Origin: Spirochaetales bacterium Spiro_07
Lineage (GTDB): Bacteria; Spirochaetota; Spirochaetia; Treponematales; Treponemataceae
DNA length: 64,000 bases
Assembly (NCBI GenBank): GCA_001603145.1
Contig: LVBI01000014.1
Location: forward strand, 23,558-87,557
Direction: 5' to 3'
Part shown: positions 57,399 to 61,562 of the stretch, piece by piece
Layout of the letters: every line of letters starts with the position of its first letter
Numbering within the stretch: the first letter of the stretch is position 1
Notes under the pieces: model-generated
What the model was told of the DNA's origin: nothing
What the model saw: only the letters and a program-made list of their open reading frames with translations
Databases searched by the model: none
Made by a program: the position numbers and the translations under genes

Positions 57399-59537
57399 AT
57401 GGCAAATCAAATAACTAACGATGATATTAAATCAAAAATTAAAACGATTTTTGCTTATCTGAACCAAAATCTTTACGGCAAAGAAGAAGCCGTGAGGCTT
57501 GCGCTTTTAAGTGCCGTTGCTAATGAAAGCATTTTCTTTATGGGGCCGCCCGGAACAGCAAAAAGTATGATAAGCCGCCGCATTGCAGCCGCGTTCAGCG
57601 ATTTTTATAAAAAAGGCGAAGACGGCAAACTTAAGTTCACCACAGAGGACGGCGGCTATTTTGAATATCTGATGAACGAATTTTCTACGCCGGATGAAAT
57701 CTGCGGCCCGATTGACCTTTCTGCGCTTAATGAAAAGCCGAGCCGCTATGTGCGCCAGACAAAAGGCTATCTGCCGAGTGCAAACGTTGCCTTTCTTGAT
57801 GAAATCTGGAAGAGCGGTCCCGCAATTTTGAACACGCTGCTTACAATTATAAACGAAAAGAAATTCCACAACGGTAGCAAAGTTGAAAATGTGCCGCTTG
57901 TATCGCTTGCAGCGGCTAGTAACGAACTGCCCGAAAAAGACCGTGGACTTGAAGCCTTGTGGGACAGGTTCGTTCTGCGCGTGTTCGTAAATCCGGTTGA
58001 AACCGAAGATGACTTCTTCAAAGTTGTTGATGACGGAAACAAGGATTTTGCCCCGACTGCGGAACAGGCTGCATCTTTGCTTAAAATTGATGATGTAGCA
58101 AGCTGGCAGGCTGAAATCAACAAAGTTACGCTGAGCGACGAAGCAAAAGAAGTGATTTCTGCAATTAGAAAAGAGCTTGCACTTCTTAACACTGACGAAA
58201 ACCACAAAGATGACGAAGCATATTATGTTTCAGACCGCCGCTGGAAAAAGATTGTGCATATTCTAAAAACAAGCGCATTCTTGAACGGACGTAATGCTGT
58301 AGATTTAATGGACTGTTCTCTTATCGAATACGCAATCTGGAACACCGATAAGCAGCATGATGAAGTTGGCGGAATTATCGAAAAGATTTTGAAGCAGAAT
58401 GGAATAAGTTTTGATAATGACACGCAGAAAATTGAAGACGACATAAAGGCTTTTGATAAATACGTTGATAAACAGTTTTATATAAAATCCAACAATAAGC
58501 TCAAGAAAGATCCTAAGGTTTTTGATACACCAGATTTGCTTAAACTTCGTTCTAACAAAGCTGATTCTGAATGGTATGAACGGATTTCAACAGAAATAAA
58601 AGATTCCTTAAAAGAAATTGATGACTTTAAAACTGAACAGGAAAAGCCTTTTAAGCAGAATCATTTTTCGGCACAAAAGTATTGCGATGTAATTATGTCA
58701 ACCGTTAAAGCAGCCAGCGAACAGATAGAAAATTTGAAAGTTGAGCTTGATAAAGTTAAAGACAGATATTCTTCAGAAAAAAATGTTCCGCAGGCTTCTT
58801 CTGCAACAGAAAAAAAGCAGCCAAATTATTCAGCACCCAAAGCAAACCTTAGTACTGAAATGATTGCCGTGGACGGTGGCATATTTGAACGCGAGGGATA
58901 TGATATTACGGTAAGCAGTTTTGAAATCGGAAAATTCCCTGTTACACAAAAACTATATCAAAGCATAATGGGCAAAAATCCAAGCAACTTTAAAGGTGAA
59001 AATCGACCTGTGGAATGTGTAAGCTGGTTAGATGCCGTGGAATTTTGCAATGCTTTGAGCAAAAAAGATGGACTTTCTCCATGCTATTCTGGAAGAGGCT
59101 CAAGCATAAAGTGCAATTTCAATGCAAACGGCTACAGATTGCCAACCGAAGCGGAATGGGAGTTCGCAGCTCGTGGCGGCAATCAAAGCGACGGATACGA
59201 ATATTCTGGCAGTGATGACTTGGACGAAGTAGGCTGGTTTAAGTATAATTCAAGAAATGAAACACACGATGTAGGGCAGAAAAAACCGAATGAACTTGGC
59301 ATTTATGATATGAGCGGAAACGTATGGGAATGGTGTAACGATTGGTATGACGATTACGAGGAGGTCGACCAGATTAATCCGCTCGGTGCTTCTTCAGGGG
59401 ACTACCACGTCTTTCGTAGCGGTTCTTGGAGCAATATTGATGACATCTGTACTGTTTCTTGTCGGAACTACGACGATCCAGGCTACAGCGACGTCCATCT
59501 TGGTTTTCGGGTTGTGCGCTCCAGTTCTAAAAAATAG
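57399..59537 (+). CDS. RavA-like MoxR AAA+ ATPase fused to a C-terminal FGE-sulfatase (SUMF1-like) domain
   Basis: Walker A GPPGTAKS (57542-57565). Walker B and sensor [26 protein letters not shown] and AASNELPE...[10 protein letters not shown]. Coiled-coil middle region. From about 58860: [57 protein letters not shown], RSGSW and HLGFRVVR. Confidence 0.85.
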   Translation: [712 protein letters not shown]

Positions 59538-59552
59538 ATGGAATAAATATAC

Positions 59553-61562
59553 ATGAGCATTTCCGACAAATCACGCAGATTTTCTCTTTTGGCGTTAGAC
59601 GAGCTTGAAAAAATAATGCAAAAGTATCCGTCCATGCCAAAAATCAATTCATTGGGCGAAGAACAAATTTCATGGCTCAATGAACGCATACGCACTTTCC
59701 ATGAAAGCGTTGTAAAAACTAATTGCAAGCGTTTTTCATTCTTGGACGAAAGCAAAGTCGTGCGAAATGCGATTGCTCATAGCACGGCGGAAGTTTCTAA
59801 AGCAGAAATCGAAGAGAACTGGCAGAAGTTCTTTGGTTTTGCAGATAAGGCAAAGATTGAACTTGAAGCAAACATAAAAAGAAGTGATTCCAACCGCAAA
59901 GAAATCCGCAAGTTTGAAAAGTTCGGTTCTTCAAAGTTCGGCAATGAACTTGAACGCAAACAGCTTTCGCAGGCTCTTGCTGACGAAATGGATTCATCGC
60001 TTAAAGACAGCGAAAAACTTGATTTTGCAGAAACCCAATCTTCAAAAGAAGTTCAGAAATTTCTTAAAGCTGAGAATCCGTTGCAAAAATCGTTGCTTGA
60101 TTTTGCAAAAAAACATAACGAGCTTAATCAGCAGATTCAGTCAGAAATCCTTGAAACGCTTCAGACTGCTTATGATGAAACTGAAATTACAAATCCGGAG
60201 AATCCGTTTTATGCAGAAAATCTTTTTGTGCAAAACGCAAATCAGTTCACAGATGAAGATTTACTGAAAAATCTTGCAGAACATAAGGCAGAGCTTTGCA
60301 CTACCCCAACCGGCAATGACAATTCGGCAAACTTTGATTTTTATCAGAAAAAGTATGAAGAGATTCTGAGACAAGCTCAGAATGACAAGAATCCACGGGG
60401 TGACGCGGTGGTTGAGCGTAGTCGAAACCACGAATTTGAAATCCTTGCGCGAAACCTCAAGGCAGATTTGCAGAAATCTTTGACCGAACGTTACACCGCA
60501 TGGCAGCTCGAAGAAATCGACAAAAAACGGCGCGAATATCTTAAAGAGCTTTACAAAAAAATCGAGCAGTTCAAAAAGCTTGAAGAACTGCTTTCGCCTG
60601 TCATCAATAACTTTGGGCGTTTGTGGGATTTATCTAAAGGCAATTTCAACGATTACGGTTTTGAAATTCTTAAAGATTTTGCAGATATCCTTGAAAACGA
60701 CGAATCTTTGAAAGAACTTGCAAATTTAATCGGCCGGCAAGAAGCCGAAAAAGAAATCTACGAGAAAGAGCTGCGTGAAAAAGTTGTGCTAAAAACAGAA
60801 TATCACCCAAAGCCGGCGTACCGTGGTCAAATCAGCGGCTTGCGCTTAAGCGGCGAGATTACTTCTGCACTGCCAAGCGAGCTTGCAATGTCAAAGAACC
60901 CTGCGACACAGCGGTATTTTGCCCAAAAATTTGCAGAGAAAAAGCTGCTTTCGTATGCATACACAAACCGGCAGAAAACTTATCGCACTGAAACAACAAC
61001 AAAAGAAGTTGAGGTTGCTAAAAAAGAAACCGAACAGAAAGGGCCTGTCATAATCTGCGTAGACACAAGCGGCTCAATGCAGGGTACGCCGGAGCGTGTA
61101 GCTAAGACTATCACGTTCGCGCTTGCAAAAAAGTGCCTTGATGAAGACCGCAAATGCTTTTTGATTTCGTTTTCCACAGAAATAGAAGTGCAGGATTTAT
61201 CTGATTTTGAAAAGTCCAACGGTCTTGCGGAGCTTGTCGCGTTTTTGCGCATGTCGTTTAACGGCGACACAGATGCAAGCCCGGCGCTTGAAAAATCGCT
61301 GGAGCTTATGCAGACTAACAAATGGAAAAACGCTGACGTTCTTGCCGTTACAGACGGAGAAATGGGTGGCTTTTCAGCAAAACTCGTTTCTGATGTAAAT
61401 GCACATAAAGAAAAGAAGTCTAAATTCTATCTTTTGGAAGTAGGCTATTCTGGAAATCCAGAAGTTATAAAAGTGTTTGACGAGCACTGGCAGTATGACA
61501 CAAACGCAAGAGATTCAATGCGCCATCTTGTAAGACAGCTGCATGATTCTCAGTTCGTTTAA
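59553..61562 (+). CDS. ViaA-like vWA (MIDAS) protein with about 480-aa coiled-coil N-terminal region
   Basis: Starts 15 nt after the ATPase gene. MIDAS motif CVDTSGSM (DTSGS at 61062-61076), then FNGDTDASPAL and VTDGEMG. Confidence 0.8.
   Translation: MSISDKSRRFSLLALDELEKIMQKYPSMPKINSLGEEQISWLNERIRTFHESVVKTNCKRFSFLDESKVVRNAIAHSTAEVSKAEIEENWQKFFGFADKAKIELEANIKRSDSNRKEIRKFEKFGSSKFGNELERKQLSQALADEMDSSLKDSEKLDFAETQSSKEVQKFLKAENPLQKSLLDFAKKHNELNQQIQSEILETLQTAYDETEITNPENPFYAENLFVQNANQFTDEDLLKNLAEHKAELCTTPTGNDNSANFDFYQKKYEEILRQAQNDKNPRGDAVVERSRNHEFEILARNLKADLQKSLTERYTAWQLEEIDKKRREYLKELYKKIEQFKKLEELLSPVINNFGRLWDLSKGNFNDYGFEILKDFADILENDESLKELANLIGRQEAEKEIYEKELREKVVLKTEYHPKPAYRGQISGLRLSGEITSALPSELAMSKNPATQRYFAQKFAEKKLLSYAYTNRQKTYRTETTTKEVEVAKKETEQKGPVIICVDTSGSMQGTPERVAKTITFALAKKCLDEDRKCFLISFSTEIEVQDLSDFEKSNGLAELVAFLRMSFNGDTDASPALEKSLELMQTNKWKNADVLAVTDGEMGGFSAKLVSDVNAHKEKKSKFYLLEVGYSGNPEVIKVFDEHWQYDTNARDSMRHLVRQLHDSQFV
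60363..60432. repeat. REP-like composite hairpin element lying in frame inside the vWA gene
   Basis: ATTCTGAG acaag CTCAGAATGAC (family signature), followed by GTGGTT...AACCAC. The 66-nt core at 60366-60431 equals 22 codons and translates as LRQAQNDKNPRGDAVVERSRNH. Confidence 0.6.

Follow-up and report, generated by a model that had tools for sequence, protein, structure and literature searches.

The gene pair and its domain architecture

A pair of adjacent genes was analysed in a stretch of 64,000 nucleotides (nt) from Spirochaetales bacterium Spiro_07 (GenBank assembly GCA_001603145.1, contig LVBI01000014.1, positions 23,558 to 87,557 of the forward strand), and this whole stretch is called the window below. 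Gene 1 encodes a RavA-like AAA+ ATPase fused to a C-terminal domain of the formylglycine-generating enzyme (FGE)-sulfatase family (FGS domain), and gene 2 encodes a ViaA-like protein with a von Willebrand factor A (vWA) domain and its metal-ion-dependent adhesion site (MIDAS). The last ~35 residues of the FGS domain carry the footprint of a variable region (VR) of a diversity-generating retroelement (DGR), and this VR is frozen in the present lineage. A first-pass annotation, made from the letters alone, had described two co-oriented genes 15 nt apart, and the open reading frames (ORFs) at 57399..59537 (712 amino acids, aa) and 59553..61562 (669 aa), both on the + strand, agreed with it; all motifs that it quoted from both genes, including VTDGE, were present, and no terminator-like site was found in the gap between the genes. 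The TvpA-like, DGR-type nature of the domain, the VR footprint and the swapping of C-terminal modules among relatives were missed at that stage. The features are given below, where AF2 denotes AlphaFold2, pLDDT the predicted local distance difference test score, and NNY a codon ending in a pyrimidine.

57399..59537, + strand: gene 1, RavA-like AAA+ ATPase with TvpA-type C-type-lectin (FGS) domain, 712 aa (ORF, Pfam, NCBIfam, AF2, Foldseek)
57426..58439, + strand: AAA+ module of MoxR/RavA type, aa 10-347 (NCBIfam RavA, bpMoxR, AAA_5, AAA_lid_8)
57543-57566, + strand: Walker A GPPGTAKS, within the AAA+ module of gene 1
58422..58772, + strand: helical domain of three long helices, aa 342-458 (AF2 secondary structure, RavA superposition, family sequences)
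58782..58832, + strand: disordered tether from the helical domain to the lectin domain, aa 462-478 (pLDDT <50)
58860..59528, + strand: FGS/C-type-lectin domain, aa 488-710, TvpA-like and non-catalytic (PF03781, TvpA sequence and structure match)
about 59381-59521, + strand: wider template-homologous stretch around the VR
59397..59501, + strand: DGR-type VR, aa 667-701 of 712 (scrambling, NNY codons, scaffold pattern, adenine-biased mismatches)
59553..61562, + strand: gene 2, ViaA-like vWA/MIDAS partner, 669 aa (ORF, NCBIfam ViaA)
59553..60602, + strand: N-terminal all-alpha domain of gene 2, aa 1-350 (AF2, family conservation)
61005..61517, + strand: vWA domain, aa 485-655 (VWA_2, VWA_CoxE, fold matches)
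61062-61076, + strand: MIDAS residues D504, S506 and S508, to which T573 and D601 are added

Pfam searches with gene 1 gave bpMoxR PF20030 (162.7 bits, cut-off 27), AAA_5 (77.4 bits, cut-off 22) and AAA_lid_8 (77.7 bits, cut-off 22.8), and the NCBIfam RavA model NF010054 matched with 293.6 bits over aa 10-347 only, corresponding to model positions 7-318 of 498, so that the MoxR/RavA-type module named in the first-pass annotation was recovered; the RavA equivalog cut-off of 681 bits was not reached. The AAA+ core, whose residues are invariant in the family alignment, the Walker A, the Walker B (FLDEIW) and the lid are those of a MoxR-family AAA+ ATPase. The Walker A has Ala where the second Gly is usual, and a GXXXTAKS form was noted for related MoxRs (Kaur et al., PMC7159879). 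The AF2 model of gene 1 (mean pLDDT 85.9) consisted of the AAA+ module, three helices, the tether and a compact C-terminal domain, in which the last ~35 residues were the sole low-confidence part. Using Foldseek, the N-terminal ~500 residues, comprising the AAA+ module and the helical domain, were superposed on E. coli RavA (3NBX, E 1.3e-25; 4UPB_E, E 3.2e-26) with TM(target) of 0.68-0.70 over 492-522 aligned columns, which is a RavA-like fold. In RavA, the LdcI-binding arm LARA is inserted in the triple-helical domain. Neither a LARA nor a RavA_C match was obtained for gene 1 in Pfam, and just a 10-residue beta-hairpin (aa 361-370) occupied the LARA site in the model; in homologues this position holds an unrelated beta-rich insert (many members) or nothing. 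The earlier proposal that gene 1 lacks the LARA region and carries an added FGE-sulfatase-fold domain was thus borne out by Pfam, NCBIfam and Foldseek. No signal peptide was detected in the sequence of gene 1, so the lectin domain should be cytoplasmic.

The FGE-sulfatase-family assignment of the C-terminal domain held in both profile and structure comparisons: PF03781 matched aa 501-707 with 150 bits, above its curated cut-off, and the best match in sequence as well as in structure was TvpA of Treponema denticola (2Y3C). The sequence match to TvpA had E 9e-42, compared with ~1e-16 for true FGEs and ~1e-8 for EgtB, and Foldseek ranked TvpA (E 1e-19, TM 0.73, root-mean-square deviation 2.7 Å, 35% identity) above every true FGE. 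Both proteins share the C-terminal VR layout RGGSW...C.V..R...P...GFR. TvpA has been described as an outer-membrane lipoprotein diversified by its cognate DGR (PMC10907252), whereas the domain of gene 1 is predicted to be cytoplasmic, is fused to an AAA+ ATPase, and has neither a template repeat (TR) nor a reverse transcriptase (RT) in the window. In the alignment to the FGE of S. coelicolor (6MUJ/2Q17), Asn stands in place of the first Cys of the catalytic CxxxxC pair, and of the two Cys just the second is retained. Because of this replacement and the closer relation to TvpA than to FGEs, the domain appears to be a non-enzymatic C-type-lectin binder of TvpA type, as the first-pass annotation had suspected in preferring a binding role to formylglycine generation. 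It is hardly conceivable that the domain has formylglycine-generating or related oxidative activity (SUMF1/EgtB/PvdO type) and is brought to clients by the ATPase: the PF03781 match and the source annotations ('SUMF1/EgtB/PvdO family nonheme iron enzyme') speak for it, but the Asn, the E values and Foldseek order led by TvpA, and NCBIfam enzyme equivalogs all far under their cut-offs led us to reject the FGE identity.

Gene 2 matched VWA_2 (37.6 bits) and VWA_CoxE (31.1 bits) in Pfam, and the NCBIfam ViaA model NF008230 with 254.2 bits (cut-off 500, not reached) over aa 302-654, corresponding to ViaA 132-479 of 487, which agrees with the ViaA-like vWA/MIDAS protein proposed before. The ~480 aa of charged coiled coil that were said to precede the vWA domain were not confirmed, as aa 1-350 form a confident all-alpha domain and aa 302-485 show homology to the central part of ViaA. 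The AF2 model (mean pLDDT 79.9) showed the helical N-domain, a long beta-hairpin and the vWA domain, and pLDDT was mostly >90 over aa 1-350. This N-terminal domain had no match in Pfam or the PDB, and Foldseek matched the vWA part only. Among 33 homologues of gene 2, D504, S506, S508 and D601 were invariant and T573 was conserved in at least 90%. Like ViaA, gene 2 has a C-terminal vWA domain with complete MIDAS and lies directly after the ATPase gene. Full-length conservation across the family was 42-91%, and gene 2 ends 14 residues past its vWA domain.

The variable region of the lectin domain

In homologues with the same fusion (74-79% identical overall), the scaffold G..RV.RGGSW.....C.V..R....P.......GFR was kept and the positions between were scrambled. 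When the DNA of the window was compared with that of the related loci L001 and L006 (proteins 76-79% identical), the scaffold codons were the same including synonymous sites and the interspersed codons differed at positions 1 and 2; in L008, some synonymous scaffold sites had drifted as well. Over four lineages, 62% and 60% of the VR columns varied at codon positions 1 and 2, respectively, compared with 33% and 23% of the domain's other columns. The 20 most variable codons were NNY in 73 of 80 cases in these lineages (background 54%, p=1.3e-12), and in the window all 20 variable codons were NNY. Such pyrimidine-ending variable codons are what adenine mutagenesis leaves behind when the template codons are AAY. 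An FGS fold with a C-terminal VR and an NNY footprint are the marks of a DGR target, and both were found here.

A DNA pattern made of the scaffold only matched once in the window. In the GTDB species collection, which does not contain the window's genome, it recovered a textbook DGR (L011) and kinase-FGS genes (L012) and nothing else, and this recovery validates the pattern. The DGR of L011 has the order target gene with VR, Avd, TR, and RT with IGNLTSQ and YVDD motifs. L012 (1954-7435) belongs to a Cloacimonadota metagenome-assembled genome and holds three tandem paralogous Ser/Thr-kinase-FGE-sulfatase genes with VR-like tails, of which the third only has the exact scaffold pattern. In the sister lineage represented by L006 and L007, the pattern matched twice, and the second match in L006 is a 151-nt, Asn-codon-rich, template-like copy directly after the ATPase gene (GNNRVNRGGSWNNNDDNC...).

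L006 2661-2811 and L007 about 4441-4591: template-repeat-like VR copy, between the ATPase gene and the inserted HTH_3+Fic gene pair

Over the first 76 nt, the L006 copy and the adjacent VR mismatched at 9 of 17 adenine sites and at 1 of 59 other sites (p=1.5e-6), and the VR of the window differed from the same copy at 15 of 34 adenine and 13 of 117 other sites (p=6e-5).

These data were weighed against ordinary diversifying selection on a binding surface in which a retroelement was never involved. Such selection could account for the distant fusions P0057 and P0074, whose tails contain Lys/Glu codons and are not NNY-restricted, and for the finding that no ATPase-fused member had an RT or a cognate TR. 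It is very improbable in view of the NNY excess among the variable codons, the scaffold codons shared by the window, L001 and L006 even at synonymous sites, the identical DNA scaffold in a bona fide DGR VR/TR pair, and the adenine-specific mismatches of the L006 copy.

The state of the VR in the present lineage was examined by searching for the other DGR components and by comparing close relatives. A generic repeat finder found no second VR copy or TR in the 64-kb window, and the best position in an adenine-aware sliding comparison on both window strands still had 37 non-adenine mismatches. For RT, no candidate was found in the window using a YxDD regular expression in six frames or tblastn with the L011 RT; tblastn with the same RT gave no match in the related loci L001-L010 and L017, and no RVT family was among the Pfam calls of L001-L010 and L019-L021. 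The scaffold-pattern scan of metagenomes recovered the close relative L017 without TR or RT, and the scan of viral sequences gave no match.

The exact gene 1 protein, with the same VR, was found on at least nine contigs from different assemblies. Its close variants P0002 and P0121 differed in the VR just by H/R, S/G and D/N, and when L017 was included just P/S was added, which is not the pattern of ongoing diversification; close strains differ by ordinary transitions, G-to-A among them. In L017, the nearest separate lineage (AAA+ 96%, FGS 90% and partner 91% identical; also beside fabH), the rest of the FGS domain had 17 substitutions, all hypervariable codons were unchanged, and a 40-residue patch had four ordinary substitutions, so the VR is evolving no faster than its surroundings. 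An inverted repeat or hairpin, which is present after the VR in L006 and in the L011 target, was not found downstream of the window VR, because gene 2 begins 15 nt past the stop codon. The lack of TR and RT in the window and the patch shared by at least nine contigs and L017 show that the VR in this lineage is frozen, and it is probably an orphan target. This fits the published biology of DGRs in Treponema: those of T. denticola have two to seven targets, mostly remote, and many isolates retain target genes after loss of RT and TR (PMC4891356; PMC5758913).

An alternative is that the VR is an active remote target, still rewritten by an RT and TR elsewhere in the genome as in the T. denticola DGR with up to seven scattered targets. 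Remote targets >100 kb away are known and the record target number is in Treponema (PMC5758913; PMC4891356), the window spans 64 kb only, and its 20 variable codons have all remained NNY. We regard rewriting at present as quite improbable, as it agrees poorly with one VR on at least nine contigs of different assemblies, with hypervariable codons unchanged in L017 despite 17 substitutions elsewhere in the domain, with strain differences that are ordinary transitions (G-to-A is not a product of adenine mutagenesis), and with the missing inverted repeat where gene 2 starts 15 nt past the stop.

Relatives and known systems

Many Treponema proteins are ~75% identical to gene 1 over the AAA+ half. 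Beyond this half, the family shares a helical linker, with or without the beta-rich insert at the LARA position, and a helical segment ending in ...DRYSS, after which the C-termini diverge: some proteins end, some continue with DUF1566/Lcl_C (PF07603), and a few with the FGS domain. The DUF1566 tails were considered as DGR targets and rejected, by eye only, as they contain Lys/Glu and show ordinary divergence. The FGS domain was fused to the ATPase in at least five lineages. Among the best 150 of 1.84 billion representative proteins, the full-length fusion formed two clusters only, a rough estimate of rarity as this search was swamped by giant multi-FGS proteins.

The pairing with the vWA gene is obligate, as a ViaA-like gene followed the ATPase gene in every complete locus examined, mostly immediately and in L006 past an HTH_3+Fic insertion that separates the two. 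The vWA protein of L006 (P0257) was found on one contig only. In the nearest deep lineage, the partner was 91% identical and the ATPase 79%. At L021 (GCA_017449265.1, JAFSJW010000080.1), the ATPase has no C-terminal module, and a stand-alone, cytoplasmic FGS protein of 312 aa is encoded directly after the pair (11454-12392); it is 39% identical to the window domain and has a small N-terminal beta domain and a VR-like tail of its own. The occurrence of the FGS domain either fused or as a separate gene supports the view that the lectin domain and the pair are functionally linked. Two AAA-ATPase_like+PDDEXK_9 genes follow the FGS gene of L021, and in L020, where the family member is also without C-terminal module, a second short bpMoxR-type ATPase (11961-13085, 374 aa) follows immediately after the vWA gene.

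The chromosomal site of the pair differs among lineages and several sites are island-like, so it is not the syntenic core pair across Treponema that the first-pass annotation had named among the outcomes that would speak against its proposal. The neighbours in L001 are DUF4143, LRR_5, a second MoxR/DUF2201 pair and Abi_2, and those in L019 are two DUF4143 genes, Abi_2, two transposases and MmeI fragments. Outside the family, the closest relative of the window lectin domain (65% identity) is the zinc-ribbon-FGS protein P0126 (L013, 8555-11589), in an operon with three Dynamin_N GTPases, a zinc-ribbon-Sel1 and a zinc-ribbon-ankyrin protein; no RT was found within 10 kb. This dynamin-like GTPase operon is another nucleoside triphosphatase (NTPase)-centred system of the kind described by Kaur et al.

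Compared with RavA-ViaA of E. coli, the operon order is the same, the N-terminal part of gene 1 superposes on RavA, and gene 2 is homologous to ViaA 132-479 with an intact MIDAS. Both proteins are far under the equivalog cut-offs (294 vs 681 and 254 vs 500 bits), gene 1 is without the LARA domain and the RavA C-terminal region and has a tethered C-terminal lectin domain added, and the first ~130 residues of ViaA are replaced in gene 2 by a conserved helical domain of ~300 aa. To our knowledge, the function of RavA-ViaA is unsettled after more than a decade of study.

In the MoxR-vWA ternary systems, the vWA component carries fused FGS domains that are often DGR-diversified (Kaur et al. 2020, PMC7159879), and DGR targets adjoining MoxR ATPases, together with a sensor model for DGR-diversified C-type-lectin (CLec) domains, were reported by Dore et al. 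2024 (PMC10907252). That published MoxR-vWA conflict systems include DGR-diversified FGS domains had not been recognised in the first-pass annotation. These systems resemble the present pair in combining a MoxR-type ATPase, a vWA protein and a TvpA-related FGS/CLec domain and in their predicted cytoplasmic sensing role, and the best Pfam match of gene 1, bpMoxR, is a family defined from those systems. They differ in that the FGS domain belongs to the vWA protein or to a target gene of its own, while it is on the ATPase here, and their hosts are multicellular cyanobacteria, actinobacteria and Chromatiales, while the present host is a unicellular spirochaete. Unlike them, the window locus lacks a DGR, a third component (VMAP, iSTAND, FtsH or beta-propeller) and any effector (peptidase, TIR or other). 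In the Pfam lists, no VMAP or iSTAND third protein adjoined the pair in the window, L001-L010 or L019-L021, and gene 2 was without an effector domain. Despite the bpMoxR name, the beta-propeller ternary subsystem (subsystem 4 of Kaur et al., PMC7159879) was rejected for want of its defining features, since just 14 residues of gene 2 follow the vWA domain and the neighbours are fabH and the DUF4143 ATPase.

DGR targets in which a CLec domain is joined to an AAA ATPase were described for candidate phyla radiation (CPR) bacteria (Paul et al. 2017, as cited in PMC10907252), and Midasin-like hits occur among DGR targets (PMC5758913). According to the citing accounts, the CPR proteins likewise have an AAA-type ATPase at the N-terminus and a variable lectin at the C-terminus, the ATPase being proposed to transduce a binding signal, and differ in lying in complete DGR cassettes of CPR genomes; neither RavA relatedness nor ViaA-like pairing is reported in these accounts (PMC10907252, PMC5758913). 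RavA-ViaA, TvpA and other DGR targets (remote and orphan ones in Treponema), FGS domains in MoxR-vWA systems, and CPR CLec-AAA fusions are thus already known. Our literature search found no lectin head on a RavA-proper-like ATPase, no binary ViaA-like pairing without VMAP, iSTAND, propeller or recognisable effector, no spirochaete occurrence, and no series of fused, split, swapped and frozen forms.

Proposed function and genomic setting

We consider it probable that the pair is a two-gene AAA+/vWA machine of RavA-ViaA type whose DGR-type lectin head is frozen in this lineage, and that it works as a cytoplasmic recognition or remodelling module. The VR, which is taken to form the ligand-binding face of the lectin domain, would have been written by adenine-mutagenic retrohoming in the past of the family and is now a fixed allele in this lineage. 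The ATPase may form a RavA-like hexamer showing six lectin heads in the cytoplasm, the heads may bind one specific macromolecular ligand, and the ViaA-like partner may dock through its MIDAS site, as ViaA does with RavA. Ligand binding could then be coupled to ATP-driven remodelling or to signalling through the conserved helical N-domain of the partner. The predicted hexamer, ligand binding, coupling and defence role follow the analogy with RavA-ViaA and with the sensor model of PMC10907252. A conflict role, i.e. the sensing of invaders or non-self, appears most likely because the head is variable, the modules are swapped, the fusion is rare and the neighbourhoods are island-like.

Several observations weigh against this interpretation. 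The hexamer and the RavA-ViaA-like interaction are extrapolated from E. coli, and there is no recognisable effector domain in gene 1 or gene 2. The neighbours of the pair in the window are mostly housekeeping (fab operon and pheT), and the position beside fabH is syntenic within the close clade. Searches of PADLOC-DB 2.0 gave 0 families for gene 1 and 0 for gene 2, and the defence or envelope-stress role suggested in the first-pass annotation was not established. Cognate TR and RT were found for no member of the ATPase family; the TR-like copy is known only from L006/L007, and in L006 it fits its own VR over the 5' half only, its 3' half being nearly identical to the VR of the window (about 60 of 63 positions by eye). 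This arrangement is the reverse of what standard homing produces and may reflect recombination or the displacement of a gene end. Finally, a conserved housekeeping specificity would likewise look like a frozen VR.

This last point leads to a serious rival, namely a housekeeping chaperone of RavA-ViaA type with a fixed client, which matures or regulates one cellular complex, uses the lectin domain as a fixed substrate adaptor replacing LARA, and has no conflict role. It would agree with the homology to RavA and ViaA, which in E. coli act on respiratory complexes and LdcI (PMC3893208, PMC10585395, PMC6987120), with the stable VR and the syntenic site within the clade, with a partner better conserved than the ATPase in the nearest deep lineage, and with the PADLOC result. 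We nevertheless hold it to be rather unlikely: the fusion is rare (two full-length clusters among the best 150 of 1.84 billion representatives), ATPases of ~75% identity have exchanged the C-terminal module or lack it, the chromosomal position varies and is often near Abi_2, DUF4143, transposases or Fic, and a fixed client would not call for a hypervariable DGR-type head.

The preferred recognition module can be extended to a RavA of programmable specificity, an AAA+ hexamer with six antibody-like lectin arms that are rewritable by a DGR, exchangeable for DUF1566 or supplied in trans. We put this forward as a tentative possibility. If true, it would be a cytoplasmic anticipatory sensor for foreign proteins in a unicellular spirochaete with its output via the ViaA-like partner, and the core job of RavA-ViaA would be to capture targets with a modular arm and then to carry out MIDAS-coupled remodelling. 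The absence of LARA and the attachment of a hypervariable lectin head argue that the arm is an exchangeable target-recognition module, and offer a route to its ligands. For DGR biology, intracellular NTPase-fused targets are extended from CPR and multicellular bacteria to a host-associated spirochaete, and the fusion is extended from the vWA component to the MoxR ATPase itself. The fused, split, swapped, template-bearing and frozen forms provide a natural series for the question of how a diversified specificity comes to be fixed. Should the conflict role be right, the pair would be a compact two-gene sensor system missing from current defence catalogues.

At the locus, fabH lies upstream of the pair on the opposite strand, and the DUF4143 ATPase gene and then pheT lie downstream. 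The guanine-plus-cytosine (GC) fraction of the pair and the DUF4143 gene is 0.37-0.43, compared with 0.45-0.48 for the fab operon upstream, and the AT-richer setting between fab genes and pheT described earlier was found as stated. The AAA_14+DUF4143 ATPase gene (61863-63209) was the only PADLOC-DB 2.0 match at the locus, being a nearly full-length match to the PADLOC candidate system PDC-S01 (E 1e-171); the same family also occurs near related pairs, in L001 and with two genes in L019. For each half of the pair, PHROGs contained a matching phage family (phrog_19600, ATPase, E 2e-57; phrog_24053, unknown function, E 4e-20), which indicates that RavA/ViaA-like pairs also occur in phage genomes.

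A hairpin family resembling repetitive extragenic palindromes (REP-like), with ATTC[CT]GA...T[CT]GGAAT and a GACAA-like tail, was found at 16483-16532, 28047-28096 and 60339-60388 of the window. The third copy falls within the coding sequence of gene 2, where it is translated (…ILRQAQNDK…RSRNHEF) as part of a linker that differs in length between homologues. No tRNA gene and no Rfam match were found in the window. A 70-nt direct repeat (83% identical, 48148-48217 and 49548-49617) flanks an SH3_3-domain gene, and the gene and its repeats lie within a markedly AT-rich stretch at about 47000-49500 (GC 0.31-0.36). At 16619-21148, a hybrid signalling protein of 1509 aa with GGDEF, PAS, HisKA, HATPase, receiver and Hpt domains is encoded, and the remaining content of the window is ordinary chromosomal, including a methyl-accepting chemotaxis protein, GGDEF-EAL, HtpG, TrkAH and the fab operon.

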